Below, piece after piece: positions 16,277-34,503 of a stretch of DNA of 64,000 nucleotides. Within the stretch, counting starts at the first letter, position 1; every line of letters begins with the position of its first letter. A program made the position numbers and the translations under genes. Origin of the DNA: a virus; the IMG/VR virus record IMGVR_UViG_3300020048_000029, positions 32,001-96,000 of that record, one strand, 5' to 3'. The notes beneath the pieces are model-generated. The model did no database searches. It had not been told where the DNA came from and saw nothing but the letters and a program-made list of their open reading frames with translations.

Positions 16277-16940
16277 TTATGATAGACCTTCCCAGCCCTT
16301 CGACCATTTCAATGTCTTTAAAAGGAGGCAAGAGACTTGCGCCGGCACCTCCAGGAAGAGTAAGGAAATTTTCACACACTCTTGGACCAATTGACGACGT
16401 TATCATACATTTTGCAATGTAACCAGCGCTCTCAACCGGTGAAATCCCGTACTCCATAACCATGCTGTTAAGGAACTCTTCAATTACAGCTTCAATCGAC
16501 TCGACTGCTTCATCATAGTTAGTGGAAGGGCCTTCTGGTTTAGTCTTAGACACAAAATCGAGCAGCTTCTCGTTAATGAACTTCTGATCTCTGTATCTTG
16601 TTATCTTCTTCCCAATCTCTGTATTAACCGGGAAGTTAGAATCCTTGCTTGACATAAGATCAGTAAGCATAGTATGGTTATCAGAAGCTATGTAAGATGC
16701 CATTCTAACGAGCTCGATTGGTCTAACGCTGCCTAATTGTGGAATCTCTGATGCTATGAATAACATCGCAGCACACTCATCAGACATAGCTTCTACATTC
16801 CAGTCAACTATCGCGTTGGCGTTTCTTCCATCGAGCAACATCATTTCACAGACATACTCAGTCTGGTCGATCATTAGTGCATTAGCAATAGCAGCTCTAA
16901 CGCTAAGATCTTCTTTAAGTTTTCCAATAAACTCTTTCAT
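16248..16940 (-). CDS. Hypothetical protein
   Basis: 230 aa, GGAGG RBS, overlaps the helicase stop. Confidence 0.7.
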   Translation of the reverse strand: MKEFIGKLKEDLSVRAAIANALMIDQTEYVCEMMLLDGRNANAIVDWNVEAMSDECAAMLFIASEIPQLGSVRPIELVRMASYIASDNHTMLTDLMSSKDSNFPVNTEIGKKITRYRDQKFINEKLLDFVSKTKPEGPSTNYDEAVESIEAVIEEFLNSMVMEYGISPVESAGYIAKCMITSSIGPRVCENFLTLPGGAGASLLPPFKDIEMVEGLGRSIINALRDNPNS

Positions 16941-19186
16941 ACCAAACCCTCCATAAAATACTTGAGATTAAATTTTTTAATAAACTCAGGATCCTTGCTC
17001 TTCTTAATCAAATCAATGAGCTTGACATCCTGTATAATTGTAAGACCACTATCATCATCTGACCGCATCACACGACCGTACATCTGAATCACATTCATCC
17101 AGATTATCCTGTCAAGGAATGTTGGATCATTCGATAGACGCTTCTTCACATACGGATCGCCCATATAAGGTATCGGGCTTTTAACTATGATCTGGGCTCT
17201 CGCGCGATCGCCTTTGAAGTCAACTCCCTCGGTAAGAGACGGAGAGAATATCACAACACCTTTACCGAGCGACTGGTTCAGAGCAGCCTCTTTTGTAAAA
17301 GGCTTTATGAACTGCTTAGTCGGGCCATTTCTCAATGGAGAGTTGTCGTTCAAGTGGAAGACAAATTTACCTGGAACATAGTTAGGTAAATTCTCCGCGA
17401 GCAGCTTCACGATTTTAAAACTATTGCAGTGAACAAGCACGTTGCCATGTGTCATAGCTTCGTCAATGTTTCCGGCAGTAATTTCTGCGAACTTTTTACA
17501 GTTCGACTCGTAAAGATACCTTCCATTCTGGCCCTTCCTTGACATGTCAAACGTCTTGTCCGCGGCTTTGATCGGTCGCTTTGCCTTGTCGAATGTAGAT
17601 TCGATTTTGACAACACCAATCTTCTCGCGGCTATCATCTCCGTAGAGTACGCCGATCTCTCTCAAAGTGCTCTCCCACCCAATCCAAGTACCAGTGCTTA
17701 ACACAATGATCTTTGAGCTCGAGTAGAAGAACTTGTTCATCAGCTTCCCAATATTGTAAGGAGTAAACCTAATACAATCCACCAGGTCACCACGCTTACC
17801 GCTAAGATAATTGAGTCTGAGCTCTTCATACTTTGCTTTGTTATGGCTGACAATGTAATCCCCTTTGTCTGAGTAATTGAAAATCGTTTTGCTCATCGAT
17901 TCAAACACTTCGTTAATGTGAGGAAGGTTGTCCATCTCAACATGGTGAAGCATTTTAGAAATCTCTTTTCTATGAATAGGTTCGACACCATCGAAGAACG
18001 CTTTACTGAACATGTTCGGGCTACCGTTCAAATGATCCTCGATATACTCTCTTGGCATTTTCCCGTTAAGAGTTCCCGCAAGCTTTGCATCGCCAGAAAG
18101 CAGGTTCATCAGAAGAGACCCTTGATCTTTTGCTGTGAACAGCTTGTACATTGCTGCCTCAGCCATTCTCGATGTCACCTTGTAAAGCTCTGTTGCAAGC
18201 TCAGGATGGATTGACCCATGGAAAACATCTACACCAAGCTTTTCAGTGAACTCCTTGTAAGGAACGTCAACTGTGAAGATTCTATGAATCACGTCAGTTA
18301 TCTTATGAGCTTCGTCATAAACGAGAATCTCATGATTTCTTACCTCATCATACACCTTTCCAAGAAGCAGCATGACATCAGGATTCATCACCTTCACATT
18401 AGAGTTTCTCAGGATCGCACGATGAGATTTGATAGGACATTCGCACTCAGAGTGAGAGCACCCAATCTCGGCGTAAAGATCGTTGTCACCTGACAATATC
18501 TCCTTGAAAATGTCTGGCCGCTCTTTAATGAGCTTGTCCGAGAATCCGCTCACTTTTTCAAGCTCGACCGGATTGAACCCATACTTCTTGATAACACCTT
18601 TTATGATGTTCTCAAGCTCTTTCGAATCGCCCACTGTTTTCGTCGTGTCATCGTTTCTACACATTTGAATATCGTACCCATCATACCCGCAAGAGATATC
18701 AGGACGACCAAGACTCTTCGCGTGATTACATGTATAGGCATTTCTGCCTTTAATGTTGTGGAGAGTTGGCCACTCCTCACGCATTAACTGGTCTTGTAGC
18801 TGTTTGAATGGGGTGATATAAGCACCGCCGCCAAACGTTTTGAGAAGAGCGTAGTTAATAGCTGACTTACCTGATCCTACAGGGCCATCTATAATGATGA
18901 ACTTCTTACCTTTGTAAACAAGGTCGATCGCCTCATTAATAGCCTTTACCTGGTTCGGTCTAGGAGTGTGCTTAGGGAAACTCTTTAGAGCAAGCTCCTT
19001 TGCTTCTTCTATAGGGATTCTTTCCTGCTCATCCTTTACCTGCCTTTTGCTTTCGATAAACTTCTGAAAAGCATTTTTTTGGCCTTCTTCTTTTGACACT
19101 ATTACCCTCAATCCTGGTCTTTCAGACCCGTAAATTTTGTAAACCTTATCATTGTTGTTGTTCCAATAAACTTCAAAAAAGAACAT
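16937..19186 (-). CDS. DinG/Rad3-like SF2 helicase
   Basis: Q motif PRPNQ; GPVGSGKS; KGRNAYTC with Cys cluster; DEAH; STGT; EGVDF; QMYGRVMRS. ATG at 19186 preferred over the track start at 19237. Confidence 0.85.
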   Translation of the reverse strand: MFFFEVYWNNNNDKVYKIYGSERPGLRVIVSKEEGQKNAFQKFIESKRQVKDEQERIPIEEAKELALKSFPKHTPRPNQVKAINEAIDLVYKGKKFIIIDGPVGSGKSAINYALLKTFGGGAYITPFKQLQDQLMREEWPTLHNIKGRNAYTCNHAKSLGRPDISCGYDGYDIQMCRNDDTTKTVGDSKELENIIKGVIKKYGFNPVELEKVSGFSDKLIKERPDIFKEILSGDNDLYAEIGCSHSECECPIKSHRAILRNSNVKVMNPDVMLLLGKVYDEVRNHEILVYDEAHKITDVIHRIFTVDVPYKEFTEKLGVDVFHGSIHPELATELYKVTSRMAEAAMYKLFTAKDQGSLLMNLLSGDAKLAGTLNGKMPREYIEDHLNGSPNMFSKAFFDGVEPIHRKEISKMLHHVEMDNLPHINEVFESMSKTIFNYSDKGDYIVSHNKAKYEELRLNYLSGKRGDLVDCIRFTPYNIGKLMNKFFYSSSKIIVLSTGTWIGWESTLREIGVLYGDDSREKIGVVKIESTFDKAKRPIKAADKTFDMSRKGQNGRYLYESNCKKFAEITAGNIDEAMTHGNVLVHCNSFKIVKLLAENLPNYVPGKFVFHLNDNSPLRNGPTKQFIKPFTKEAALNQSLGKGVVIFSPSLTEGVDFKGDRARAQIIVKSPIPYMGDPYVKKRLSNDPTFLDRIIWMNVIQMYGRVMRSDDDSGLTIIQDVKLIDLIKKSKDPEFIKKFNLKYFMEGLV

Positions 19187-19216
19187 GTGTGACCTAATGT
19201 AACTATTGTACAATTG

Positions 19217-19267
19217 AAAGTGTGATTGTAATATCACGCAAATTGAGTGATATTACCGTCACACTTT
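19217..19267. repeat. Long imperfect inverted repeat
   Basis: AAAGTGTGA-TT-GTAATATCAC-(9 nt)-GTGATATTAC-CG-TCACACTTT. Confidence 0.85.
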
Positions 19268-19295
19268 TTAAGTATACCAAAATAGTGTCGGTTAT

Positions 19296-19409
19296 AAAAA
19301 GTACTGTACAGGTAAAAATTGGGTATACTGTACAATACTGTACAAGCAAAAATAAATGACCGAAAACGGGGTTTTTCAAAAATAGGAAAAACGCAAAAAG
19401 TACTGTACA
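19296..19409. repeat. Iteron-like direct repeats TACTGTACA x4
   Basis: Copies at 19302, 19326, 19336 and 19401; the first and last extend to AAAAAGTACTGTACA; variant TACTGTATA at 19630. Confidence 0.8.
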
Positions 19410-19523
19410 TTTGTATAGAAAAATCTTTTTTGGCCATTTTTTCAATAAAATCGAGAAAATGGACACCGAGAAGGTTAAGTGTTTTAATAGAAAAAAGTCG
19501 TTTTCAAATCACAAAACAGCACC

Positions 19524-19536
19524 TAAGTCGTTGATT
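19524..19536 (-). promoter_or_regulatory. IHF-binding consensus
   Basis: Minus strand AATCAACGACTTA matches WATCAANNNNTTR. Confidence 0.55.
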
Positions 19537-19543
19537 ATTTTTT

Positions 19544-19559
19544 TGGCATGGATTTTGCT
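19544..19559 (+). promoter_or_regulatory. Sigma54-type -24/-12 promoter
   Basis: TGGCATGGATTTTGCT with exact GG-N10-GC spacing and TGGCA/TTGC cores. Confidence 0.55.
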
Positions 19560-19577
19560 ATAGACATCATAAGAAGT

Positions 19578-19720
19578 TCTTATATATAATATATAGATAT
19601 CTACATAGTAATATATAATATATAATATATACTGTATATCTATGCTTACATGGTGCATAACATTACACATCCGCATCGCCTCACACACATACACACCCAT
19701 CCACACACCGCCACACAAAC
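19578..19720. other. AT-rich tract followed by a CA-rich tract (candidate origin unwinding element)
   Basis: About 60 nt of almost pure A/T (TATATATAATATATAG...ATATATAATATATAATATAT), then CACACACATACACACCCATCCACACACC. Confidence 0.5.
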
Positions 19721-19791
19721 TTTTAAAAACCGTGCACACGATAAGCAGATAAACTGTATGTTTCGTAATTTACGCCTTCATTGACAGCGCA

Positions 19792-20067
19792 TTAGCTATA
19801 AAACATTTTTAGGTAATCAACAAAATCGCCACTCAGACCGTCAAAATCGGATTCGACAAACCCAAACAGGATCGCTGACTTGACCATCTCGTAAAAATCG
19901 AAATGTTCTCCAGACGCAATCGACTGCATGATCGTTGCGGCGTTGAACAGGTCTGCCGGGCTCATGATGGCCTCGTTCGTTGCCAAGCAGTGTCGAACTA
20001 GCTCTGTGACCTGTTCACGAGTTCCTGACAACGATACGAGCTCTGCGTATTTCTTTTTAAAATTCAT
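19792..20067 (-). CDS. Hypothetical protein
   Basis: About 91-aa ORF starting MNFKKKYAELV. Confidence 0.55.
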   Translation of the reverse strand: MNFKKKYAELVSLSGTREQVTELVRHCLATNEAIMSPADLFNAATIMQSIASGEHFDFYEMVKSAILFGFVESDFDGLSGDFVDYLKMFYS

Positions 20068-20240
20068 TTTGTCCATCCCTTGAGACACTCGCAAACACTC
20101 TCAGGCTTCGAGAGAGGGCCGTGAGCATCGGTTAAAGTAAAAACACATACCTAGGCAGCAAAAAATAAAATCAAGGGCCTTAAACAGCCTCTTTCGCGTT
20201 CGAAACTAAAATCAAATACTGTTTCTCATTTTTTGAATAT

Positions 20241-20423
20241 TTAGTAATTAAACCTGTTCCCAACACTGTTAAAAAACTTGTATTCAGGAACTTTTGGAAC
20301 CGGTTCAAAAACCTTTGCAACGACACGTTTATTGAACGCATCTTCAACCAAAACTTTATCGATGTCAACTCCGTACTTCTCGTACAAAGAAAGTATCTCT
20401 TTTCTCACTGGCAACAATCTCAT
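20241..20423 (-). CDS. Hypothetical small protein
   Basis: 60-aa ORF downstream of a terminator; no clear RBS. Confidence 0.4.
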   Translation of the reverse strand: MRLLPVRKEILSLYEKYGVDIDKVLVEDAFNKRVVAKVFEPVPKVPEYKFFNSVGNRFNY

Positions 20424-20439
20424 TTACGGGTAAAAAAAT

Positions 20440-20465
20440 AGCGCCACACGATTAAGTGTGACGCT
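20440..20465 (-). terminator. Intrinsic terminator
   Basis: Minus strand AGCGTCACAC-TTAATC-GTGTGGCGCT followed by ATTTTTTT. Confidence 0.7.
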
Positions 20466-20487
20466 GTTTGAGTGCGGTGATGTTGCC

Positions 20488-20523
20488 TTAGTTAATCGCA
20501 ATTGCGATATCCTCTAGTGGCAT
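20488..20523 (-). CDS. Candidate 11-aa micropeptide MPLEDIAIAIN
   Basis: Perfect SD AAAGGAGGT ending 6 nt before the ATG; own terminator downstream. Confidence 0.4.
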   Translation of the reverse strand: MPLEDIAIAIN

Positions 20524-20556
20524 AGCATCACCTCCTTTTCTGTTGGGAAACACGCT

Positions 20557-20979
20557 CTAATCATTGGTACAAAACTCAGTTTGGTAGTATTTTTCAGCGT
20601 CCTTTTTGTACATGAATATTGCAATCCCGGAACTATGTGGAACCGGATCTGTACCCCAGTCACCAGCCCCAAACACACCGTCGAAACCGACTGACCACCA
20701 CTTCTCCTCTTCAGAATGGAGCTTGAACATCTCTCTTACCGCATCTCTTAGCGTGGCAGCGTCAAGATTACCAGGGTCTGTCATTTCGCTACAACCACTC
20801 TTCCGGTCTATCTCCCCAAGGACGCTCCACCAATCTTTGTCGAACAGTGGCGTGCTCTTGGTTGTCCACGAGTACAATCGTGGTTGTAATCCGTCAAGGA
20901 AAAGCTGGCAAAAAGTGCCATCATATTTCAATGTGACATTAATTTTCCGGTTCGGTAATGCTACTACTGCTGTATTCAT
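20557..20979 (-). CDS. Hypothetical protein
   Basis: ATG at 20979 with AGGAG RBS; first gene of the leftward arm. Confidence 0.65.
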   Translation of the reverse strand: MNTAVVALPNRKINVTLKYDGTFCQLFLDGLQPRLYSWTTKSTPLFDKDWWSVLGEIDRKSGCSEMTDPGNLDAATLRDAVREMFKLHSEEEKWWSVGFDGVFGAGDWGTDPVPHSSGIAIFMYKKDAEKYYQTEFCTND

Positions 20980-21097
20980 ACAAGCTCCTTGATAGAAGAA
21001 TAACACCATGTAATCCCTCTTCATTGTAGTTATACCAGAAATTCGAGAAACATAACGCTTATGCAGATTGTATTTTAGGTCATACTTGGAGGTAAAT

Positions 21098-24000
21098 ATG
21101 CAAGATAAGATCTTAGCGCAACTCGCCCAGATGAGCTACGACAAGCGTCAGAACACAATGATGAACGCTACAGTGTCAACCACTGTTAATCATGTTTTAA
21201 ATAATGTTGAAAATGATAAAATTAAGCTTGTTGCAGATAATGTAGAAGTAGTTAAAAAATACGAGCATGACGATCTGGCTAAGCAAAAAGACATCGCAGA
21301 CAAGCAGCAAGTTTTTTCTGACGAAATCAGAGCTGACCTGAAGCTTATCAGCAAAGAGACCGGTGAAGTTATTGACACTGCACTCGGCGTTAAGATCGCA
21401 GAAATACCGAAGGTGACCGATCGAATGACTTACTTGATCAAAGGTAACGAATACCAGACAAGTATGCAGCCTCGACTCAAGTCCGGAGTTTATACAAAGA
21501 CTCAAAGCAATGGTGAGATCAGTTCTTATTTCAACGTTGATAAAACCGTTGACTTTGACCGCGGTTTCAATAACGACTTCAGAATCGACTTTGAACCAGA
21601 GTCGAAGATTTTCAGCATGAGATACGGCGGGAAGAAGATACCCCTTCTGAGCACGTTAAAAGCTCTAGGCGTATCATCGCGTGACCTTGAGGCTAAATGG
21701 GGCAAGGAAGTGCTAGATGAGAACGAGAGAATGTACGGACGCCATGAAGAGAGAGATATCAAAAAGCTTTACAGCGCGGTGTTCGGGAAAGAGCCTGGTA
21801 AAGACGAAAAGCTTGCCGACCTTTCAGCCACAATAAAAGAGCGACTTTTTGACACGAGACTCAATCCAGAGGTAACATCGATCACTCTTGGAAAAGCTTA
21901 TGACAAAGTGAACGGAAGCGCAATACTCGATGCGTCAAAGAAAATCATCGATATCAACCGCGGTGTTGAAGATGAAGACGACCGCGAGTCTCTCATGTTC
22001 AAGAACATCGTAGGGATCGAAACTCATATCAAAGAGCGACTCGTAAAAAGCTCGAAACAAATCGCGAATAATATCGCTCACAAGCTCGGGAAGACAGGGA
22101 AGATCAACTCTTCCATCTCATCTCAGATGTTCCGCCCTTACATCGAGGGAGTGATCACAGGGTCTCAGATCTCCAACCCGCCAAACCAGACGAACATCAT
22201 GTCGATCATTGGCGAGTCAACTAAAATCACTCCTATGGGAGAAGGCGGTATTGGATCGGCAAACGCGATCACAGATAGTATGCGTGTTCTGTCGAACACC
22301 GAAGCCGGATTTGTCGATCCTTTGCACACACCTGAAGGTGGAGGAATCGGTATTTCTAAGCACCTTTCCAATGGTACTGTCGTTGTAGAAGGTACACCTT
22401 ACAGTACTTTTATCAACCGCAAGAGCGGGAAGAAAGAGATGAAATCTCCTTCTGAGTTGTACAGCAAGTACCTCTCATTCCCGGACCAGTTCGACTCTAA
22501 TGGTAAGCCGAAGAATAAAAAAGTGTCTGTAATCCATAAGGGTAAAATGACCACTGTTGACGCTTCTGAAGTTGACTACGTGATCCCTTCATCTGAGTTC
22601 ATGTTTGATACCGCTGCCGCATCCATCCCTTTCCTTGACTCAATCCAAGGTAACCGTGGTCTTACCGCTTCGAAAATGCAGGAGCAGTCAGTGTCTCTTA
22701 CGAACAGAGAGAAACCACTGTTCAACATCATGGCAGGGAACGGGAAGTCGCTTTCAAAAGCTCTCGGATCTTCGATAGCGGTCCCAAAGTCTCCGGTTGA
22801 TGGAGTCGTAGAGAACTTGACTGATGAGCTTATGGTGATAAAAGGAAAAGACGGTAAGAGTCATGAGATTCAACTGTACCACAACTTCTCACTTAACTCA
22901 GAGTCGTTCCTGAACAATGATCCACTCGTTAAGATTGGTGACAAAGTTGAAAAGGGCCAGATCCTTGCAGACAATAACTTCACGAAAGATGGTCACGTTG
23001 CCCTTGGAGCAAACCTTCGAGTTGCTTACATGCCTTACCGCGGATGGAACTATGAAGACTCAGCAGTGATAAGTGAGTCTGGAGCTAAAAAGCTTCAGTC
23101 GCAGCACATGTATGACTTCAAAGCAAGAAGAAGCTCTGGTGGTACTTTTGACAAGAAGAAATTTGCAGCTTACTATCCTGAAGAGACTTCTTCAAAGACA
23201 ATGGCAAAGCTCGATGCAAACGGAATTATCAAAGTAGGCCAAAAGGTTGAACACGGAGACATTCTCATTGCTCACATGGAACCAGTAGCTCCAACTGCTG
23301 ACGATATCGCTGTAGGAAGACTTGATAAGCAGCTCAAAAGAGACATGGCCAACAACTCAGTAAAATGGGATAAAGGCCACGTTGGAATTGTTACAAGCGT
23401 GACCAAGCACGGTAACAATGTCGTTGTGAACGTAAAGACAAAAGAGGATATGAAGAAGGCTGACAAGATCGCCGGACTCCACGGTAACAAGCACATCATC
23501 TCGGAAATTCTTCCTGATGACCAGATGCCTTTTGATCCGGTTACCGGTAAGCACATTGAGCTTACAATGTCACCGATCGGGGTGTCTAACCGAATTAACA
23601 CCTCTCAGCTCCTTGAGAATGCTGCTGGTAAAATTGCCGAGAAAACCGGTAAGCAGTATGAGATTCACAACTTCGAAGACACAGATAACTCAAGAAAAGT
23701 TATGAGAGCTCTAAAGGCGAACGGTCTTTCAGATAAAGACAAGTTGATCAACCCAGAGACAGGGAAACCTTTCAAGAGTGAGATCGCTAATGGTGTGTCT
23801 CACATCCTCAAGCTTGAACACACTATCGATCACAAGTTCTCATCTCGATACAGAGGTGGGTACGACTCAAATGAACAGGCATCAAGCGGAGGGCATCATG
23901 GTGGTAAAAACGTCGGAAGAATGGAATCAGCGGCTCTCCTTGCCCGAGGTGCAACTGCAAACCTTGAGGAGATATTCGGAGTTAAAGGACAGCGGAATGA

Positions 24001-27000
24001 TGAGTATTGGCGAAACATGGAAATGGGCATACCTACCCCTACTCCTAAGAGCCCTGCTTTCGTATGGGATAAATTCCTTGCGATGTCGAAAGGTGCGGGG
24101 GTAAATATCGAGCGTAAAGGCAAGTCTTTCACGATGAAGCCTATGACCGACGAAGATATCATGAAGATCTCTGCCGGCGAGCTTACTCGTCCAACTGAGA
24201 CTTATCGTAAAAAGAACTTTGAACCTGTAAATGGCGGATTGTTCGATCCGAAAATTGTAGGGGGTATGAGAGGTGACAAGTATTCTCACATCCAACTTCC
24301 TGAGAGTATTCTTAATCCGATAACAGCGAAAGCAGTTGCCGGGATTCTTGAGATGCCAGAGAGCAGACTCGAAGCAATCGCTGAAGGAACTCAGTTCATA
24401 AGCAAGAAGACCGGTGAAAATGTCTCAAAAGGACACGCTGATGGGTACACTGCAAACGAAGCTATTAAGAGCTTGTTGAAAAACATAGATCTTGATAAGG
24501 AGTATGAACAGGCTAAAAAACAGTCTGAGTTAACCCATAGCACTGCTGATCTCAATAAGCTCAACCGTAAGATGAATTACATCAAAGGGCTTAAAAAGAA
24601 CGGTCTTGAAGCAAAAGACCTTATGATAAGCAAAGTGCTTGTCACTCCTTCAAAGTTCAGACCAATGATCCAGATGGGAGCGGATGGTACCGTTATCATC
24701 GCTGATGAGAATGAACTGTACCAGCAGGTTGCTCAGACTTCTAAAGCTCTCGAAGACCATAAAGATGCTATGAATGATCTACCTAAAAGCGTTCTTGGTA
24801 TTACAGCAGCTGAAGGACGCGGACAACTGTACAAAGACGTTCGCGCTCTTCAAGGGTTGTCTGAGCCAACTGCATACCTTCACAAGATCAAAAAGAAAAA
24901 AGGGTTCCTTGCTCAGATTGACGGTGGAGACAAGCAGACAAAAGAAGGGTACTACCAGAACAAGGTGATGGAGCGTCGTCAAGACTTGGTTGGCCGTTCT
25001 ACTATCACTCTTAACCCATCTCTTGGTGGTGACCAGATGGGTATTCCAGAAGAAATGGCGACAGACATTTTCCGTCCATTTATCATGCAGAAACTCGTAT
25101 CTTGGGGGTACAAGCCTCTTGATGCTAAAAAACAAGTTGACGATGATAGCAGTGTGTTCAAAAAGGCTCGCGAAGTTGTCGCTGGAGAGAGACTGATAAT
25201 TGCAAACAGAGCTCCTTCTCTTCACAAATGGAACATGACAGCTTTCCATCCTGTTCTTACAAAAGGAAAGTCAATTGAGACTCCAGCTGTTGTGATCTCA
25301 AAGAACTTTGATGGTGACTTTGATGGTGACACATTTCAGATCCATGTCCCTGTAAGCAAGAAAGCCCTTGAAGAAGCCTACACAATGCTTCCGTCTGTAA
25401 ACATGCTTAAGACCGGGTACGGATCTGTTCTTAACATGCCTGACATGGACATGATTGCAGGAGCGTACCTTGCATCAAAAGGCGAGGGTAGCGACGGGAA
25501 AGTTCACGAGTTCAAAACTCTTGAAGAGATGCAGAAGGCTATAAAAAGCCATAAGATCGATCACTCTGACATGGTAAAAATAGGAAAGAGAACCGACAAT
25601 GCAATCATGCATGATATCAACAGCACTCTTCCTGAAAAATTCCATAAATGGGGCCATGATCTCAACAAGAAAAATGTTGAGAAGTGGATTGCCGATGTCA
25701 GTGAGAACGGACCAAAAGGAACAGGCTTAGACCTTGCGGACAAGATTAAGGAAGTCGGTAATGATTACATTACGAAATTCGGACTCACACTTGGCGTCTC
25801 AGACACGCTTGTTGACACTGAAAAGAGAGACGATATTGTCAAAAAAGCATGGGAGAAAGCAAAAACAGAAGGTGTGGTATCTGCATTCTCATGGGCAAAA
25901 GAAGAAGCTAAAAATGAACTTGCTTCTAAGCACGGGATCAAGTCGCAAGTTGGGATTCCACTTATCTCAGGAGCAGGTAAAGGCATTGGAAACACGTCTG
26001 ACATCGCAATGTTCCCAGGAATCCTTGCCGACGCAAATGACAATCCTATCGAAATACCGATCCTTCGTTCTTATTCTGAAGGTCTCGATACTTTTGGTTA
26101 CTGGGCGGCTGCTCACGGAGCACGAGGTGGTAACATCAAAAAATCTGTCCAATCGTTCAAGCCAGGGTACCTGACAAAGAAGATGATCAACACAATGTAC
26201 GAAACTCGTATCGCGAGCGAAGTTCCGATGGATACTGAAGGTGTTGAGTACAAAGTGTCAGATAAGAAAGGTATTGTAAACAGATACCTTGCTCAGGATG
26301 CAGTTGATAAAAAAGGCAAAGTTGTTGCGAAGAGAAACGATCTGATCGATGCTGCTCTTATCAATAAATTCCACATTACAGGAACGAAGAAGATCTATGT
26401 TCAGTCACCTTTAACAGACCCTACTCCTGGAGAAGGGTTCTCAGCTTGGTCGTATGGAGTTTCTGACAACAATCGTAGAATGAACCGCGGTGACCATGTC
26501 GGGGTGATATCTGCACACACAATCACGCAGCCATCTCTTAACCTTGCGATGAAATCGTTCCACTCAGGTGGTAAGATAGATGCAAAAAGCGCGAAGAGAA
26601 AGGTGAATACCGGTTCTGCGTTTGACGAGATGGACAGAGTATTCAGCTTTGTTCAAACACCTCCAGACAAAGCAACTTTGGCAAAAATTGACGGTGTTGT
26701 CGAAAGTGTGAACCAGTCCGGAGTTGGCGGATTTGATGTCGTGATAAGTGGCACCAAACACTACGTTTCTAAAAATGTTGACACCGAAGTAAAAGTTGGT
26801 GACAAAGTTAAGAAAGGCCAGCAGATATCAACTGGCACTCCTAACCCTCACGAAGTTCTAAGCCTTCGTGGAATGAAAGAGACCCAGAAGTATCTCGTTG
26901 AAAAGCTTAGTGATATTAACGAAGGGAACCTCGATAAGAGAAACATCGAGACGATCGTAAGAAGTATCACGAATACAACAAGAATTACCGATCCAGGTAA

Positions 27001-27265
27001 AAGTGATTACGTTAAAGGTGACACAGTAGCTCTTACAACTGTTGAGCATCTCAATAAGAATGGACTTGGGATTAAACACTCTCCATTCCTTGTTGCGATG
27101 GGTATCGGTGGTAAGCCAGCGTTGTCAAAAGACTTTATTGGAAGACTTGGCCACAACAGACTTAAAGACGTGTTCCAAGACGGTTCTGTGATGGGTTACG
27201 AAAGCAAAATTGATAGAGACTCTGGCAACCCTATGACAAGACTTGTCAGCGGCGTTTACGAATAA
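21098..27265 (+). CDS. Single-chain (fused beta-beta') multisubunit-type DNA-directed RNA polymerase
   Basis: Beta motifs HTPEG, NRGLTASKMQEQ, GWNYEDS, DKIAGLHGNK, GGKNVGRME; beta' motifs GLFDPKI, NRAPSLH, catalytic DFDGD (NFDGDFDGD), GARGG, trigger loop LAMKSFHSGG; GGAGG RBS before ATG 21098. Confidence 0.92.
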   Translation: MQDKILAQLAQMSYDKRQNTMMNATVSTTVNHVLNNVENDKIKLVADNVEVVKKYEHDDLAKQKDIADKQQVFSDEIRADLKLISKETGEVIDTALGVKIAEIPKVTDRMTYLIKGNEYQTSMQPRLKSGVYTKTQSNGEISSYFNVDKTVDFDRGFNNDFRIDFEPESKIFSMRYGGKKIPLLSTLKALGVSSRDLEAKWGKEVLDENERMYGRHEERDIKKLYSAVFGKEPGKDEKLADLSATIKERLFDTRLNPEVTSITLGKAYDKVNGSAILDASKKIIDINRGVEDEDDRESLMFKNIVGIETHIKERLVKSSKQIANNIAHKLGKTGKINSSISSQMFRPYIEGVITGSQISNPPNQTNIMSIIGESTKITPMGEGGIGSANAITDSMRVLSNTEAGFVDPLHTPEGGGIGISKHLSNGTVVVEGTPYSTFINRKSGKKEMKSPSELYSKYLSFPDQFDSNGKPKNKKVSVIHKGKMTTVDASEVDYVIPSSEFMFDTAAASIPFLDSIQGNRGLTASKMQEQSVSLTNREKPLFNIMAGNGKSLSKALGSSIAVPKSPVDGVVENLTDELMVIKGKDGKSHEIQLYHNFSLNSESFLNNDPLVKIGDKVEKGQILADNNFTKDGHVALGANLRVAYMPYRGWNYEDSAVISESGAKKLQSQHMYDFKARRSSGGTFDKKKFAAYYPEETSSKTMAKLDANGIIKVGQKVEHGDILIAHMEPVAPTADDIAVGRLDKQLKRDMANNSVKWDKGHVGIVTSVTKHGNNVVVNVKTKEDMKKADKIAGLHGNKHIISEILPDDQMPFDPVTGKHIELTMSPIGVSNRINTSQLLENAAGKIAEKTGKQYEIHNFEDTDNSRKVMRALKANGLSDKDKLINPETGKPFKSEIANGVSHILKLEHTIDHKFSSRYRGGYDSNEQASSGGHHGGKNVGRMESAALLARGATANLEEIFGVKGQRNDEYWRNMEMGIPTPTPKSPAFVWDKFLAMSKGAGVNIERKGKSFTMKPMTDEDIMKISAGELTRPTETYRKKNFEPVNGGLFDPKIVGGMRGDKYSHIQLPESILNPITAKAVAGILEMPESRLEAIAEGTQFISKKTGENVSKGHADGYTANEAIKSLLKNIDLDKEYEQAKKQSELTHSTADLNKLNRKMNYIKGLKKNGLEAKDLMISKVLVTPSKFRPMIQMGADGTVIIADENELYQQVAQTSKALEDHKDAMNDLPKSVLGITAAEGRGQLYKDVRALQGLSEPTAYLHKIKKKKGFLAQIDGGDKQTKEGYYQNKVMERRQDLVGRSTITLNPSLGGDQMGIPEEMATDIFRPFIMQKLVSWGYKPLDAKKQVDDDSSVFKKAREVVAGERLIIANRAPSLHKWNMTAFHPVLTKGKSIETPAVVISKNFDGDFDGDTFQIHVPVSKKALEEAYTMLPSVNMLKTGYGSVLNMPDMDMIAGAYLASKGEGSDGKVHEFKTLEEMQKAIKSHKIDHSDMVKIGKRTDNAIMHDINSTLPEKFHKWGHDLNKKNVEKWIADVSENGPKGTGLDLADKIKEVGNDYITKFGLTLGVSDTLVDTEKRDDIVKKAWEKAKTEGVVSAFSWAKEEAKNELASKHGIKSQVGIPLISGAGKGIGNTSDIAMFPGILADANDNPIEIPILRSYSEGLDTFGYWAAAHGARGGNIKKSVQSFKPGYLTKKMINTMYETRIASEVPMDTEGVEYKVSDKKGIVNRYLAQDAVDKKGKVVAKRNDLIDAALINKFHITGTKKIYVQSPLTDPTPGEGFSAWSYGVSDNNRRMNRGDHVGVISAHTITQPSLNLAMKSFHSGGKIDAKSAKRKVNTGSAFDEMDRVFSFVQTPPDKATLAKIDGVVESVNQSGVGGFDVVISGTKHYVSKNVDTEVKVGDKVKKGQQISTGTPNPHEVLSLRGMKETQKYLVEKLSDINEGNLDKRNIETIVRSITNTTRITDPGKSDYVKGDTVALTTVEHLNKNGLGIKHSPFLVAMGIGGKPALSKDFIGRLGHNRLKDVFQDGSVMGYESKIDRDSGNPMTRLVSGVYE

Positions 27266-27279
27266 TTAAGGAGGATTGT

Positions 27280-28539
27280 ATGAATGATATTGATGAAGCA
27301 GCGCTTGGATTTACACTTGGGGTTGCACCTATGGGGTACATTGCTGCAAAAAAGGTTCCTGAGTTTATCCATTCAAGACAAAGGCTTGCGCTTGAAGAGG
27401 CCAGATTACCTAAGGCAAAATCATTTGCAGCAAAATCTAAAGCGACTGCTGCAGTTATGATGGCTGCCGCAGGATTAGGCACTGTAAATTTGCTTAAAAA
27501 ATATGCAAATGACGACGCTTTTGTAGGCGCTGGAATTGCTGGAGCTGCTGGAGCTATAGGAGCAAATGAATACATTAAAAGAAAGACGAAAGCAAATGAT
27601 ATTCAAGCTAGTGCGATAGCAGATAAGCTTAAGTATGTTGACAGATCGAGAAGGGCTATTGGATTAGGTATGGCATCACTTTTAGCTTATGGTGCGATTT
27701 CTAAGGTGGAACCATTCGCAAGATTACTCCTGAAGAAGGCGTCAGACAACACTCCTGCTTCTCCTAGCATAATTCTTGGAGCCGCTGCCGCTGGAGCCGC
27801 AGGGTCAGCATACGCAGTGAAAAGCGTAAATAATGAGGTGAAATCAATAATAGACAAGTACAACAGCGACTATTCAAAAAAGCTAAGCGGTTCCGAAAGA
27901 AGAGCAGTTAACAAGGTTCTAAAGAGTGAGGGCTTGAAAATTTACAATGATGCACACAAGCAGTTTAAGGCGTCAAAAGCCAAAGACGTCAGCATTTCAG
28001 ATATCATAAAAGACAACAAGCTTAATATGAGAAACAATTTTGCAACAGATATACCGAGCAAATTCGGAACGGGCCCAGCTCAAGTTGTGCAAGGTGGTAT
28101 TATGCTTGTTCCTAAAAAAGTACCAGTTGCAGTTTTTGCGCATGAGTTCGGACATTATCTTAGTGGGGAAAGAGGGACAGGAGGACCTGTAGATTTCGCT
28201 AAAAGGCAACGTAAAAACTCAAGCCCAGAGGGAACGCTTAAGGAAGAGTTTAGAGCCTCTTTTAGTAAAGAAAGTAGAAATGCAATACCTTTGCACAAAA
28301 GAGGTGTAGAAGGTCTTAAGCTAGACTTGCACGCAAAAAGGACTTATATAGGTTCATATCTTGCTAAAGGAAGAATTAAAGGATCAAAAGGTGTAGCACT
28401 GCTAAATGCTCATAATAGCGTAATCGGCATTAAGCCTAGACTTGTATCCATTGCAAAAAGATCTGGAGTAATAGGTGCTGGAGCAGGCTTAGGTGCCGGT
28501 GCATTATCTGCAGTAATGTTTGCCAAAAACAATTCTTGA
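27280..28539 (+). CDS. Gly/Ala-rich protein with a zincin-type HExxH metallopeptidase motif
   Basis: VFAHEFGHY and downstream EEFRAS; several hydrophobic GxxxG segments; AAGGAGG RBS. Confidence 0.6.
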   Translation: MNDIDEAALGFTLGVAPMGYIAAKKVPEFIHSRQRLALEEARLPKAKSFAAKSKATAAVMMAAAGLGTVNLLKKYANDDAFVGAGIAGAAGAIGANEYIKRKTKANDIQASAIADKLKYVDRSRRAIGLGMASLLAYGAISKVEPFARLLLKKASDNTPASPSIILGAAAAGAAGSAYAVKSVNNEVKSIIDKYNSDYSKKLSGSERRAVNKVLKSEGLKIYNDAHKQFKASKAKDVSISDIIKDNKLNMRNNFATDIPSKFGTGPAQVVQGGIMLVPKKVPVAVFAHEFGHYLSGERGTGGPVDFAKRQRKNSSPEGTLKEEFRASFSKESRNAIPLHKRGVEGLKLDLHAKRTYIGSYLAKGRIKGSKGVALLNAHNSVIGIKPRLVSIAKRSGVIGAGAGLGAGALSAVMFAKNNS

Positions 28540-28574
28540 GCGCAATATATTTTTGCTTAAAAGGCTGGTGAAAT

Positions 28575-29111
28575 ATGAATAGTTTTGTTTCCGGGGCTCT
28601 CCCCGGTTTTTACACATACGATGATGCAAAAGACAACCCGTACTCTAGCAGGGCTGGGAATGTTGCAGGAGCGTTCGTATCTGGGGCTGTAGTGCCTGTT
28701 GCAACAACCGGATTAATAGCAGCGGCAGCAGCTAAAATGCTAAAAGATAAGAATCCTGTAGTAGCCAAAAACCTGAAAGACGCAGCTCTTTCTCAGGTTG
28801 ATATTCTCAACCCTTCAATGATGACTAAGCATGTCAAAAGTATTCCACTGATGACTAAGGCGACATTAAACATGAGCAAGGCTGAGACAGCTAAGAATAT
28901 CTTCGCCAAAGCTCACGCCTACTCAAAAACAATGAAGAGCGCGAAAGACATTTCCAAACTCTACGGCATTGGTATTACGAAAGTAGCTCCAATGTCGGCA
29001 AGAAGTATCGGTGCTCTCACCGGAGTAGTCGGAGGAGTTTCTGCTGGAGTTGCCAACGCAATGCTGGTTAATGGAAATTACACCCGCGGAAAAAGAGATG
29101 GGATGTTATAA
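28575..29111 (+). CDS. Gly/Ala-rich hypothetical protein (possible virion/membrane protein)
   Basis: 178 aa with two hydrophobic Gly-rich segments; preceded by TATATTTTT. Confidence 0.65.
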   Translation: MNSFVSGALPGFYTYDDAKDNPYSSRAGNVAGAFVSGAVVPVATTGLIAAAAAKMLKDKNPVVAKNLKDAALSQVDILNPSMMTKHVKSIPLMTKATLNMSKAETAKNIFAKAHAYSKTMKSAKDISKLYGIGITKVAPMSARSIGALTGVVGGVSAGVANAMLVNGNYTRGKRDGML

Positions 29112-30436
29112 TGGAATTGCAAGATCACCAAAAGGAAGCTATAAAGAGACTTGATGGTGGAATGATCTATTACCATGGTCTCGGAACAGGTAAGACCTTT
29201 ACGTCTATTGCGGCGACAGGCAAGTACGACAAAGTGAATGTTGTAACTCCTGCATCTCTTCGAGAGAACTACAAAAAAGAGATCGTAAAAGCCGGTGTAA
29301 AAGCTGAAAACTACAATGTCGGGTCATACGACCAGGCGCAGAAAAAAGCTCCTCCAACAGCCGACGCGATCATAGTTGATGAGGTTCACAGAATTTCTGA
29401 GCCTTCAAGCAAAAGATCGAGAGCGATACTTGACATAGCAAAATCGCACAAAACAAGAATCGGTCTTACAGCGACTCCAATCGTGAACAGGCCATCAGAC
29501 CTCGCCCCGCTTGCCCACTTCGTTGACCCGAACTCCGACATCCCAATGTCAAGAAAAGAGTTTGACAAGCGGTACATTGGGACGCACAAGCCTAATGTTG
29601 TTGCAAAGCTATTTGGAGCGAGAGACTCTAATTTTGTAAGCAACAAAAAGGAGTTGAAGAAGGCGTTCAAAGGAAGAATGCACTACGTTCCAGGTGGAGA
29701 GAAAGACTTTCCTGAAGTGAAGACTGAGTATGTTGATGTTAGAATGACAAAGCCTCAAGAGCGTCTTTACAAGACACTTGCTCACACGGCAAACCCGTTG
29801 GTAGCATTCAAAGTAAGGCACATGATCCCTCTGTCTTCACAAGAGCTCAAGACTGCAAACTCTTTCATGTCTGCAACAAGACAGGCATCGAATGACCCTC
29901 AGAAATTCGGGAATCATGGAGAAGGGTCGAAAGTCAAAAGAGCTGTAAGAGACATGGTTGAAGCGAGTAAAAAGGATCCTAACTACAAAGGTCTTGTCTA
30001 CTCGAATTACATCAAAAGTGGTACGTCTCTCATGACTAAAGAGCTTGATGCAAATGGGATTCCGTATCGAATATTCAACGGATCTCTCGGAGATGAAGTT
30101 CGTAAAAAGGCTGTTGCTGACTACAATAGCGGAGCCGCTAAAGCCTTGTTGATTTCATCTGCCGGAGCAGAAGGACTTGACTTGAAAGGCACCAAGATGG
30201 TTCAGGTTCTTGAGCCTCACTGGAACAATAACCGTATCAGACAGGTTATCGGAAGAGCTGCTCGATACAAGTCTCACGATGCTCTCCCGGAAAAAGAGCG
30301 TAAAGTTGTTGTAAGAAGATACCAAAGCACACTCCGTAGAGGTGCAAGTGCTGATGTATATTTGAACGACATGGCGAAGAAAAAAGACGAGCTTAATGAT
30401 AAGTTCCTCGAAGTTTTGAAAGAGGTTGGCAAATGA
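29111..30436 (+). CDS. SNF2-family (SF2) helicase/ATPase
   Basis: HGLGTGKT, DEVH, TATP, EGLDL and QVIGRAAR motifs. Confidence 0.88.
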   Translation: MELQDHQKEAIKRLDGGMIYYHGLGTGKTFTSIAATGKYDKVNVVTPASLRENYKKEIVKAGVKAENYNVGSYDQAQKKAPPTADAIIVDEVHRISEPSSKRSRAILDIAKSHKTRIGLTATPIVNRPSDLAPLAHFVDPNSDIPMSRKEFDKRYIGTHKPNVVAKLFGARDSNFVSNKKELKKAFKGRMHYVPGGEKDFPEVKTEYVDVRMTKPQERLYKTLAHTANPLVAFKVRHMIPLSSQELKTANSFMSATRQASNDPQKFGNHGEGSKVKRAVRDMVEASKKDPNYKGLVYSNYIKSGTSLMTKELDANGIPYRIFNGSLGDEVRKKAVADYNSGAAKALLISSAGAEGLDLKGTKMVQVLEPHWNNNRIRQVIGRAARYKSHDALPEKERKVVVRRYQSTLRRGASADVYLNDMAKKKDELNDKFLEVLKEVGK

Positions 30437-30903
30437 GTAAGGCGTCTGAATATATTCTCCAAAAGATTGCCGAAGACAGGGAGTACACTTACAGAGGTGA
30501 GATTGTAAGAAGTGTTCCATTTGTTGGCGCTGGAGTCGCAGGAGGAGCTGTTGCTGAGTGGGCAAAGACTCATGTTCCAGTTAAAGCTGTTGGAAGAAAA
30601 GCAGTTCTTGGAGCTGCTGCTGCCATCGGAGGTTACGGTGTGTCAAATGCGGTTGTAGGTGGAAAATTCGACAACAACACAATTCCAGTTGCAATAGGCC
30701 TCGGTACCGGAGCTATAGGAAACGGAGTTTATGAAGCTGTAAATATGAAGCAGTATGTCAAGAAGCACCCGCTTATTTTGCCTAAAAACGTACCAGTCAA
30801 TAATTATCACAAGGGGATAGCTGGTGCGACATCAGCTCTTCTTGGAGGCCTTGCGTCAGTTGCAGTAATGAAAGGAATTAAAAAAGATGAACGAGAATCT
30901 TGA
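30433..30903 (+). CDS. Gly-rich putative virion protein with N-terminal LQKIAE motif
   Basis: MSKASEYILQKIAE followed by several GxxxG hydrophobic segments. Confidence 0.6.
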   Translation: MSKASEYILQKIAEDREYTYRGEIVRSVPFVGAGVAGGAVAEWAKTHVPVKAVGRKAVLGAAAAIGGYGVSNAVVGGKFDNNTIPVAIGLGTGAIGNGVYEAVNMKQYVKKHPLILPKNVPVNNYHKGIAGATSALLGGLASVAVMKGIKKDERES

Positions 30904-31531
30904 AAACACGATCGCTTTAACAGGCGCTGGAGCACTTGGGTACGGAGCGTACAAAACCGATGGCTTTAAAAATGTCAGAGACAGAGCGTCTGTGTTGATG
31001 AACAACATGGCTAATACCGTTGAATCAAACCAACTGTTCAAGAGCAGACAAGCCGCAATAGCAGCGCAAGAACTCAAAAGAGCATCTGCTCAAAAGATTG
31101 CGTCAAGAGCAATTGCTGCGGCGTCTATCCTTGGCACAATAGGAGCCGGCAACAGTCTCTACAGAAGTGTTGCAGCAACCAAAGACACTGTAGCTGCCAA
31201 CAAGTCGAACATCAATAATATCTTCAGTAATGTGTCGTCTGCAACTGGAGCCGTCAAGGATATGGCTGCAAACGCAGGTGCTGGGTCAAGGAAGATTTTT
31301 GACAACCTTGTGTCAGCAAGTGACGCTGTAGTTGAAGCGGCTAAAGATACAAAAACCGGAGTTGGCAGCATTGTTGACAATGCTATCGGAGCGTCTAAAA
31401 ATGTTGCTGACACGACTGGAAGTGTCGCTTCAGGCGCCAAAAGCGTAGCAGGAGTCATGTCCAAAGGCTCAAGCCTTGCCGGAATTGTTAAAATGGTAAA
31501 CGGGGTCGCAAGACCTATGTTCAGAAAGTAG
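30887..31531 (+). CDS. Ala/Ser-rich helical putative virion protein
   Basis: 214 aa; amphipathic repeats such as NIFSNV..A / KIFDNL..A / SIVDNA. Confidence 0.6.
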   Translation: MNENLENTIALTGAGALGYGAYKTDGFKNVRDRASVLMNNMANTVESNQLFKSRQAAIAAQELKRASAQKIASRAIAAASILGTIGAGNSLYRSVAATKDTVAANKSNINNIFSNVSSATGAVKDMAANAGAGSRKIFDNLVSASDAVVEAAKDTKTGVGSIVDNAIGASKNVADTTGSVASGAKSVAGVMSKGSSLAGIVKMVNGVARPMFRK

Positions 31532-31538
31532 GAATACT

Positions 31539-32078
31539 ATGGAAGCTATGTTTTATGAATCTCTCAAGGATGTCCTGGCGTTTGAAGGAGGGTATTCAAA
31601 CGACCCTAAAGACCCAGGTGGAGAGACGAACCTTGGAATTACAAAAGCTGTTTACGATGCGTACCGTAAAAGCAAAAAGATTGCGGTAAGATCTGTTAAG
31701 TTCATCGATAAAAAAGAGGTTGAAGACATTTACTACAACCTCTACTGGTTGAAAACTGGATGTGACAAGGTGCCTGCAAAATGGGGATACATGATGTTTG
31801 ACACTGCTGTTAACTGCGGAGTGTCAAGATCTGTCAAAATTGCTCAAGAATCACTGGTTCGTCTAGGTGTAAAAACTACTGTTGATGGCAAGATTGGTCC
31901 AAATACGATCAAAAGCATTAACTCTGTAGTTGACGTTGATAACTCATCGGTGAAGACTTATATTAAGGTCAGAAACGAATTTTATGACTCGATTTGCGTT
32001 CGTAATTCGAACCTTCTCAGGTTCATAAAAGGGTGGAAAATCCGTACTAAAAAGATCGAGGACAAACTTTGCAAGTAG
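31539..32078 (+). CDS. Glycoside hydrolase family 108 lysozyme with peptidoglycan-binding C-terminus
   Basis: EGGYSNDPKDPGGETNLGIT, FDTAVNCG, VDGKIGPNT and FIKGW motifs. Confidence 0.9.
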   Translation: MEAMFYESLKDVLAFEGGYSNDPKDPGGETNLGITKAVYDAYRKSKKIAVRSVKFIDKKEVEDIYYNLYWLKTGCDKVPAKWGYMMFDTAVNCGVSRSVKIAQESLVRLGVKTTVDGKIGPNTIKSINSVVDVDNSSVKTYIKVRNEFYDSICVRNSNLLRFIKGWKIRTKKIEDKLCK

Positions 32079-33364: not shown

Positions 33365-33375
33365 AAGGAGATTTT

Positions 33376-34221
33376 GTGAGTTTTGTAAAAGAAGCAGCTA
33401 ACAGATTAATGAAAGAGTTTTGGAAGCTTAAGCCTGAGACAAGAGCCAGTCTGCACGAAATTCCAGGCATGTTCAGACCAATGGAAAGATATTCCGAAGG
33501 GTTTATAACTAGAGCTTACAAGAATGCTAAAAAACACAATATCCCTATAGAAGTAAGCAAAAAAGGCGAAGGAAGTCATCTTAATACAAACCTAAAAAAA
33601 GATGGGACTCTTGACTTAAAATCAACTAAAATGATTTTGGAGCCAGCAAAAACATCGCAAAGTAATGATGTATTAAACGCAGCTGCTGGTGCAGCACATG
33701 AGTCTGATGAGCTGAGCGCAATTATGAAGCTTGATGGTAAAATTTATAATCCACCAACCGTAAAAATGCAGGTTCCAGAAGGGTACATTCCTCTTTCAAA
33801 AAAAATTGAGGTAAATGAAAAAGCTATATCAATGGTTGAATCTGCAAGAAATAGAATCAAAAAAATTCCTGTTGTTAATAAGCTTGATAAATTTATGGGT
33901 GCAGTTTCAGGAAGAATTAAAGATAAGAATGACGAAGTAAAAAAAATCAGTTTAAAAATTTTGTCAGACGGAATGTCAACATCTTCACATGCAAACTTCG
34001 GAATTCTTGGTAAAGAGTCGAACTTGCAGGCTAGAACTCCATACAAACTTTCTAATGGAGACTTTAGAATGGGTTCTGGAGAAGCTGAAATGGTAAAATC
34101 AATTACAGGAGCTAGATACGGAATTGACTACATAAAGCCTAAAGATATGAAAAAGTTGATAAACAGAAAAGAGCACTTTCAAGTAGAGTTGAATAAAACA
34201 TTCTGGGATAACTGGAGTTAA
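33376..34221 (+). CDS. Hypothetical protein, apparent paralog of 45605..46582
   Basis: GTG start after AAGGAG; starts FVKEAA; HESDE...SH...E motif. Confidence 0.6.
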   Translation: MSFVKEAANRLMKEFWKLKPETRASLHEIPGMFRPMERYSEGFITRAYKNAKKHNIPIEVSKKGEGSHLNTNLKKDGTLDLKSTKMILEPAKTSQSNDVLNAAAGAAHESDELSAIMKLDGKIYNPPTVKMQVPEGYIPLSKKIEVNEKAISMVESARNRIKKIPVVNKLDKFMGAVSGRIKDKNDEVKKISLKILSDGMSTSSHANFGILGKESNLQARTPYKLSNGDFRMGSGEAEMVKSITGARYGIDYIKPKDMKKLINRKEHFQVELNKTFWDNWS

Positions 34222-34224
34222 CAA

Positions 34225-34494: not shown

Positions 34495-34503
34495 TATATT
34501 TTT

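Follow-up and report, generated by a model that had tools for sequence, protein, structure and literature searches.

A cysteine-free, single-chain beta-beta' RNA polymerase encoded by a large uncultured phage and probably carried in the virion

A 64,000-nucleotide stretch of viral DNA (hereafter the window, positions 32001-96000 of the single linear IMG/VR virus contig IMGVR_UViG_3300020048_000029, which measures 152,686 bp and is rated 84% complete by CheckV) contains one uninterrupted open reading frame (ORF) predicted, from motif conservation and modelled structure, to encode a catalytically competent bacterial-type RNA polymerase (RNAP) core with beta and beta' on one chain. The most telling feature of its 2055-residue product, designated P0001, is the total absence of cysteine together with the loss of the second zinc site of beta', a feature overlooked in the initial annotation of this DNA. 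Cysteine absence and zinc loss point to an enzyme carried in the virion. Its packaging is inferred; we regard it as more probable than not that P0001 is a virion-carried, sigma-dependent, zinc-free single-chain RNAP that starts transcription without the host polymerase. The elements of the gene on which the argument turns are as follows, in window coordinates.

21088 to 21092, plus strand: Shine-Dalgarno sequence GGAGG, 5 nucleotides before the ATG at 21098, by direct reading of the sequence.
21098 to 27265, plus strand: gene for the single-chain beta-beta' RNAP P0001, 2055 residues without cysteine, an ORF beginning with ATG and uninterrupted by a stop.
21098 to 24118, plus strand: beta module, residues 1-1007, with lobes, fork, NYEDS, flap, K..GLHGNK and the C-terminal clamp piece ending in GAGVNIE (Pfam, motif alignment, Foldseek).
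24119 to 24145, plus strand: junction, approximately residues 1008-1016, RKGKSFTMK, which joins the beta C-terminus through a brief structured stretch to beta' residue ~14 (local alignments; predicted local distance difference test score, pLDDT, 92-95).
24146 to 27262, plus strand: beta' module, residues 1017-2055, with clamp helices, lid and rudder, catalytic double-psi beta-barrel, bridge helix and trigger loop (Pfam, Foldseek, motif alignment).
24236 to 24298, plus strand: position from which the beta' zinc ribbon has been lost, residues 1047-1067, GLFDPKIVGGMRGDKYSHIQL, where alignment opens a 32-residue gap facing beta' 66-98.
25310 to 25330, plus strand: catalytic loop DGDFDGD, residues 1405-1411, with D1407, D1409 and D1411 invariant (motif alignments).
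26225 to 26452, plus strand: former second beta' zinc site, where E. coli C814, C888, C895 and C898 correspond to P1710, D1774, S1782 and S1785 (alignment).

The motifs of beta and beta' occur in bacterial order within the one ORF, as initially annotated: Pfam places the beta domains first (Rpb2_3 at residues 363-425 and Rpb2_6 at 581-926, E 2e-55), followed by the beta' domains Rpb1_1, Rpb1_2, Rpb1_3 and Rpb1_5, which span residues 1122-1970. The join itself is economical, since the beta C-terminal motif, LGINIE in Salmonella, reads GAGVNIE in P0001 (residues 1000-1006) and the equivalent of beta' residue 14 is reached about 10 residues later. Among solved structures, bacterial beta and beta' come nearest in sequence (E ~1e-75). 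Folds were compared using two separate single-chain AlphaFold2 models, one of residues 1-1010 (pLDDT 84.6, predicted template-modelling score 0.78) and one of residues 880-2055 (pLDDT 88.6, predicted template-modelling score 0.85). Foldseek returned cyanobacterial and other bacterial beta subunits as best matches for the former, at template-modelling (TM) scores of 0.73-0.75, and bacterial beta' at TM 0.73-0.78 over ~1180 columns for the latter. As modelled, the bridge helix, the trigger loop and the overall beta/beta' fold are kept over almost the full length, and pLDDT is ~89-95 through the junction, at the ribbon deletion and around the former second zinc site.

The catalytic motif does read DGDFDGD rather than the bacterial NADFDGD, as had been noticed at the outset; it lies within the wider stretch NFDGDFDGD at residues 1403-1411. 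DFDGD is invariant across the family of related phage proteins described below, while the residues preceding the aspartates vary, with a family consensus of GGDFDGD and NADFDGD itself in some members. The asparagine of the bacterial motif touches the ribose of the incoming nucleoside triphosphate. Motif alignment also reveals conservation of NRAPSLH (R1371), of the beta motifs NYEDS and K..GLHGNK (the latter forming part of the beta-barrel lysine motif KIAGLHGNK at ~790-798) and of the bridge helix, and the trigger loop has M, K and H where E. coli has M932, R933 and H936. Many catalytic residues are invariant even though members of the alignment share only ~31-65% identity. These findings bear on the notion that P0001 is a relic that has lost its activity or taken on another role, such as that of a DNA-binding or structural component of the virion incapable of RNA synthesis. 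Such a fate might be read into the substitution of N458 of NADFDGD (D in P0001, G in most of the family) and into the absence of both zinc sites, which are stabilising in cellular enzymes. We nevertheless consider it quite improbable, in that sequences only ~30% identical agree completely or almost completely at the three metal-binding aspartates, at R1371 of NRAP, at the beta lysines and in the residues of the bridge helix and trigger loop, which argues for purifying selection on catalysis, and the former zinc regions are modelled at pLDDT ~93. The rifampicin pocket, by comparison with E. coli, carries the replacements D516 to N, H526 to E, S531 to T, Q513 to N and F514 to P; because the pocket thus differs where bacterial resistance mutations arise, P0001 is likely to be insensitive to rifampicin.

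Loss of the N-terminal zinc-binding cysteine cluster of beta' was correctly located in the initial annotation. GLFDPKIVGG (residues 1047-1056) leads into ...YSHIQL (1062-1067) at the point where Salmonella beta' has a zinc ribbon of ~32 residues, and local alignment to that subunit leaves a 32-residue gap there. This deletion is common to the whole family, in which no conserved cysteine column occurs at the site. The description of the enzyme as minimised holds to a lesser degree: its length is ~5-12% below that of the smallest bacterial beta plus beta', and what remains is essentially the conserved bacterial core. Trimming was judged from a 75-member family profile aligned to beta and beta' from Salmonella and Staphylococcus. 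The large gaps relative to E. coli-type subunits (beta ~230-420, 934-1048 and 1129-1191; beta' 948-1133) correspond to lineage-specific inserts that are missing in many bacteria too. Relative to the compact Staphylococcus subunits, the losses comprise the beta' N-terminal region including the zinc ribbon (~55-60 residues), three beta' segments of 16, 37 and 16 residues, and part of the beta' C-terminal tail; one of the three short segments presumably falls within the secondary-channel rim helices, by the E. coli numbering that we assume. Since the big gaps are known inserts and the models match whole bacterial subunits, P0001 is best described as a modestly trimmed bacterial core on one chain.

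The compositional anomaly is extreme. Against a cysteine content of 1.5% in the remaining proteome (235 ORFs constituted the set for genome-wide composition), ~31 cysteines would be expected in the 2055 residues of P0001 and none is present (P ~3e-14). Because P0001 has no cysteine, the second zinc site of beta' is gone as well as the first. Its four ligands (Zn2) are retained in the exact columns by 25 of the 75 aligned relatives, and these carry no other cysteine; across 80 IMG/VR loci, polymerases have either the four Zn2 ligands or none, with extra cysteines only in intein-bearing genes. Complete loss of cysteine arose at least four times in the family trees, and the last zinc site seems, from these sequences, to have been lost several times within the lineage. 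The pattern extends beyond the polymerase. The five genes that follow it (g90-g94, 27280-31531) are cysteine-free and yield, with P0001, 3463 consecutive residues without cysteine; a sigma-like protein (g209) and a 1322-residue protein (g205) encoded elsewhere in the genome also have none, bringing the RNAP, its five neighbours, the sigma-like protein and g205 to 5015 residues without cysteine. Among homologues of the sigma-like protein in relatives, 10 of 11 are cysteine-free. Cysteine content is 1.2-2% in the helicases, the terminase, the 1123-residue g60 and the homologue of the ribonucleotide reductase of Salmonella phage Arash.

Two gene products are candidate partners of the polymerase.

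Genome positions 134122 to 134814, outside the window: g209, sigma-70-family protein, found by BLAST with Arash proteins as a homologue of the Arash sigma factor gp10 (E 4e-15).
Window 29111 to 30436, plus strand: g92, SNF2/SF2 ATPase of 441 residues without cysteine, with motifs GTGKT, DEVH and QVIGRAAR (Pfam SNF2-rel_dom and Helicase_C; phrog_62).

Assignment of g209 is corroborated by Pfam Sigma70_r3 (29 bits, cut-off 25.3) and by phrog_351, "RNA polymerase sigma factor" (7e-14); the protein aligns to RpoS regions 2-3 and, weakly, across the whole SigB/F/G model. Its neighbourhood is conserved, with gp6, gp8 and gp10 of Arash corresponding to g206, g207 and g209, and a sigma homologue occurs in nine of ten relatives of at least 90% completeness. 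The earlier statement that no alpha or sigma gene is visible thus holds for the window and fails, as regards sigma, for the 152.7-kb genome. By the same token, promoter recognition, which had been left open, is no longer fully so, because the genome encodes a conserved sigma-70-family protein orthologous to a virion sigma of Arash. No match to the alpha and omega families PF01000, PF01193 and PF01192 was found in the 152.7-kb genome (84% complete), whereas control families were matched in 14 of 14 genomes, and no second RNAP copy was detected in that sequence. Host alpha may be used.

The SNF2 protein had been proposed as a cofactor. It is indeed a recurrent neighbour; its helicase motifs are intact, and its Arash orthologue is gp217 (35% identity, E 1e-76). 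In Arash the gp217 gene directly follows that for the C-terminal part of beta', and g92 lies two genes after the RNAP. An SNF2 gene adjoins the polymerase in only 5 of 80 loci, however, and is undetectable in three complete relatives; an obligatory cofactor was rejected on both counts, and because it is missing from those three genomes the protein is accessory at most. A RapA-like role of such helicases has been proposed for phiKZ-type phages (PMC7824862).

An indication of virion residence comes from Arash, whose virion set has orthologues here in P0001 (gp206 plus gp216), g92 (gp217) and g209 (gp10). Proteomic data exist for Arash only; P0001 and the other fused members of the family are known from genes alone. 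Sucrose-gradient-purified Arash virions contained gp206 as the most-detected protein, with 128 unique peptides and 3516 spectra, and gp216, the SNF2 protein gp217 and the sigma factor gp10 at structural-protein levels (PMC10585845). Peptide densities are capsid-like for this RNAP set, at 6.6-10 unique peptides per 100 residues, vs 1.4 for the reductase (PMC10585845). The virion sigma gp10, gp217 and gp4 of Arash have no cysteine, and its second sigma, gp196, has three. In the available part of the Arash report, gp196 is absent from the virion table (PMC10585845); it has no detectable homologue in the genome studied here.

On these grounds we propose that P0001 works with the phage's own sigma-70-family factor g209, would be packed into the virion late in infection and delivered into the host with the DNA, and would there transcribe the first phage genes independently of the host polymerase. 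As the sole RNAP gene in the genome, it probably also supplies newly made enzyme for later transcription. Fusion of the subunits would replace assembly driven by the alpha dimer and make assembly alpha-independent, and the loss of cysteine and zinc would suit time spent in the particle, outside the cell, and during passage across the envelope. A more tentative extension of this proposal, to which we give somewhat less than even credence, is that a complete bacterial-type holoenzyme (the single-chain beta-beta', the small sigma and sometimes the SNF2 translocase) resides in the capsid, is threaded through the tail and refolds in the host without zinc, alpha dimer or omega.

Several observations weigh against such a role, and some of them favour a rival in which the phage RNAP is made only after infection, as are T7 RNAP and the non-virion enzyme of phiKZ; early genes would then be read by host RNAP, and middle and late ones by the phage enzyme together with its sigma, the cysteine loss would have another cause, and the Arash signal would be carry-over. 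The authors of the Arash study themselves offer two explanations, packaging for early transcription or carry-over, and their preparation held non-structural enzymes, such as ribonucleotide reductase with 11 peptides (PMC10585845). Only one RNAP gene is present in the genome, in contrast to phiKZ-type phages, in which a virion enzyme is accompanied by an additional non-virion set (PMC7824862). K-x-A-[SAGE], a motif of head proteins, is significantly over-represented in g6, g102, g119, g124 and g125 but not in RNAP, sigma, SNF2 or g205, and so lends no support to proteolytic processing of the module. Virion proteins are moreover generally cysteine-poor, with 0.3-1% in portal, capsid and tail proteins (capsid 0.6%, tail 0.3-0.4%), and low cysteine is a sign of being in the particle and not, in itself, of being ejected. 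Signals for a dedicated promoter were sought by exact and one-mismatch k-mer enrichment in 84 upstream regions, which yielded only T-runs and no phage-specific motif, and by a sigma-70 consensus scan of 19000-35000, in which 25 sites were found vs 24.7 expected, a chance result. Finally, because the genome is only 84% complete, an undetected alpha, omega or second RNAP is possible and could sit in the missing part. The post-infection enzyme remains the main rival, yet both the cysteine pattern and the peptide densities in Arash tell against it: it is difficult to see why cytoplasmic enzymes should lack cysteine over 5015 residues, in a pattern shared by hundreds of relatives, when other enzymes of the phage have 1.2-2%; the Arash RNAP set is detected at densities like those of capsid proteins; and the RNAP gene heads the structural block rather than lying in the small-gene early arm. 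We accordingly consider production solely after infection unlikely, and a virion-carried P0001 the better account.

The fused polymerase belongs to a populous family. A protein search returned well over 100 clusters (at 90% identity) of fused proteins of 2000-2140 residues, many with inteins, on contigs reaching 195 kb; scanning IMG/VR with an alignment recovered more than 430 relatives, mostly single ORFs of 2000-2200 residues, while a pattern scan of the same database built from the single protein recovered none. The same single ORF is present in 80 fetched loci from many samples, with a junction that is conserved and structured. A search of 185,579 species genomes yielded, as sole family member, one apparently mis-binned phage contig, the rest being ordinary rpoB-rpoC of at most 28% identity. 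These observations leave the supposition that the fusion is an artefact of assembly or gene calling, or a cellular rpoBC on a contaminating contig, with virtually no credibility: the ORF recurs in the independent clusters and loci just mentioned, portal, terminase, protease, capsid and tail genes are present on the contig, and cellular RpoB and RpoC lie across a branch with support 100. Homing-endonuclease and intein domains (PF14528, PF05204, PF14890) occur in many polymerase genes of the family, giving ORFs of 2400-3000 residues (examples are loci L014, L040, L069, L091 and L111 and proteins P0005, P0008 and P0012); P0001 has none. One intein-bearing relative, DAOQAF010000001.1 (L111), is a phage-sized contig of 204 kb within a Bacteroidales metagenome-assembled genome, reflecting either mis-binning or a hint of the host of that relative.

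Trees were built with FastTree (55 rows) and with IQ-TREE under LG+G4 (44 rows, 28 of them from the family and 15 from bacteria of at least seven phyla). Both employ simple models, both leave out the RpoBC fusions of Helicobacter and Wolbachia as well as archaeal and eukaryotic sequences, and the long branch of Cobetia phage Carin-5 in them is unreliable. In each, the family falls on one side of a branch with support 100 (Shimodaira-Hasegawa-like approximate likelihood ratio test 100 in IQ-TREE). The initial suggestion of a distinct phage RNAP lineage is thus borne out, both by the number of its IMG/VR representatives and by their forming one clade apart from the 15 bacteria, and neither the phylogeny nor the NCBIfam scores given below place P0001 within cellular rpoBC fusions. 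P0001 itself groups, with good support, in a sub-clade of fused enzymes that lack cysteine (52-58% identity). The split forms, including those of Arash and Vibrio phage D69, constitute one clade (support 99-100) nested among fused forms, which suggests, with bacteria as outgroup, that the fused form is ancestral in the lineage and the split form of cultured phages derived. The only cultured members of the family are Salmonella phage Arash and Vibrio phages D69, D148 and D181, all in the derived split sub-clade; the lineage is otherwise a large group of uncultured phages of ~140-210 kb.

Comparison with known systems delimits what is distinctive. Arash gp206 and gp216 resemble P0001 at 30.6% identity over 1499 residues and 24% over 613 residues, and fall in the same clade in both trees. 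Arash also has beta fused to the N-terminal half of beta', no zinc ribbon, orthologous sigma and SNF2 genes, and a near-absence of cysteine in the same protein set. Arash and D69, however, retain the four Zn2 cysteines and break beta' near residue 1500, the remainder being encoded by a separate gene several kb distant, whereas the P0001 chain is unbroken and Zn2 is lost. Cellular fused RpoBC proteins (Helicobacter-type PRK09603 and Wolbachia-type PRK14844) share the head-to-tail join and the order of subunits, but are full-size (~2840-2890 residues by NCBIfam model length), and P0001 scores only 470 bits against a cut-off of 5372 for the Helicobacter-type model and 382 against 4632 for the Wolbachia-type. 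In cellular RNAPs both zinc sites are retained, and alpha and omega serve as partners.

The mReC set of Weinheimer and Aylward (2020), which is described in the available part of that report as comprising phage beta and beta' genes that branch outside Bacteria (PMC7481178), similarly contains small phage RNAPs recognisably related to bacterial beta and beta'. In every entry in that part of the report, however, beta (~1000-1400 residues) and beta' (~900-1300 residues) are separate, and mReC capsids match T4 gp23 (PF07068), for which this genome has no match; fusion is mentioned there only for crAssphage (PMC7481178). Membership in the mReC set, as far as the available part of the report defines it, was therefore rejected, given the fused gene, the lack of a PF07068 match and the two-protein form of mReC entries. 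Carin-5, a cultured mReC look-alike, has a sigma gene beside its RNAP, with ~24% identity to P0001 and 14 cysteines. In its 155-kb genome (PV155638.1), sigma, beta (1083 residues) and beta' (927 residues) are adjacent in the replication region, the polymerase being separate, small and mReC-type.

The RNAPs of phiKZ and AR9 are much more divergent, and P0001 matches the PHROG families of these phages weakly (1e-22 to 1e-8). They too are cellular-type, with one set packaged and injected and a Snf2-type helicase genomically linked to the RNAP genes; unlike P0001, their beta and beta' are each split into at least two proteins, and no sigma is encoded (PMC7824862). The likeness to phages N4 and DEV is functional only, as P0001 has a two-barrel, bacterial-type fold. 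N4 and DEV are podophages, and their enzymes adopt the unrelated single-subunit fold of the T7 type. N4 gp50 and DEV gp71 nonetheless resemble P0001 in being very large cysteine-free polymerases with cysteine-free neighbour genes, and theirs are ejected into the host; the virion RNAPs and the ejection operon lack cysteine in both phages, which the authors tie to passage through the periplasm (PMC11445570). No description of the fully fused, cysteine-free, zinc-less form was found in the literature, though relatives, represented by Arash, have already been published (PMC10585845).

Should the proposed role be correct, a sigma-dependent, bacterial-type enzyme would join the short list of phage-injected polymerases, and the start of infection would be explained in a large, almost uncultured phage lineage known from hundreds of IMG/VR contigs. 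It would constitute a fourth independent solution to virion-borne transcription, beside those of N4, phiKZ/AR9 and crAss/P23-45, and the only sigma-dependent one. Bacterial RNAP is generally considered to depend on the alpha dimer for its assembly and on two structural zinc ions within beta'; P0001 would then be the simplest self-assembling cellular-type RNAP known and a natural minimal model in which to study assembly, folding and sigma recognition. Biotechnology would also gain a compact, probably rifampicin-insensitive polymerase.

The RNAP gene opens a plus-strand block that runs on into terminase, protease, capsid and tail genes. The remaining features of its surroundings are listed here in genomic order.

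Window 27280 to 28539, plus strand: g90, 419 residues, no cysteine, with five hydrophobic segments rich in Gly/Ala and the sequence HEFGH, which resembles the HExxH motif of metallopeptidases; no family match.
Window 28575 to 29111, plus strand: g91, 178 residues, no cysteine; no family match in PHROGs, Pfam or NCBIfam.
Window 30433 to 31531, plus strand: g93 (156 residues) and g94 (214 residues), no cysteine, the end of the six-gene cysteine-free run; no family match.
Window 50753 to 52537, plus strand: head maturation protease, phrog_18299, homologue of Arash gp222.
Window 54412 to 55434, plus strand: major capsid protein, homologue of Arash gp226.
Genome positions 127010 to 130978, outside the window: g205, 1322 residues, no cysteine and no family match, occupying the position of Arash gp4.

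Searches of PHROGs, Pfam and NCBIfam gave no match for g90, g91, g93, g94 or g205. No homologue of g90 was found near the polymerase in 80 related loci, and a search of the ESM Atlas with g90 returned sub-threshold leads only. By analogy of position, g205 is a candidate internal or ejected protein; its counterpart, the cysteine-free gp4, is the second most-detected virion protein of Arash. Within the cysteine-free run, where g90 meets g91 (window 28591-28606, plus strand), a perfect 6-bp GC stem, CCGGGG/CCCCGG, followed by TTTTT may act as a terminator or attenuator. Upstream of the polymerase and on the opposite strand, window 16937-19237 (minus) encodes a 766-residue DEAD/Helicase_C_2 helicase (XPD/DinG-like, phrog_2488), which is distinct from the SNF2 gene and has nine cysteines, a normal content.

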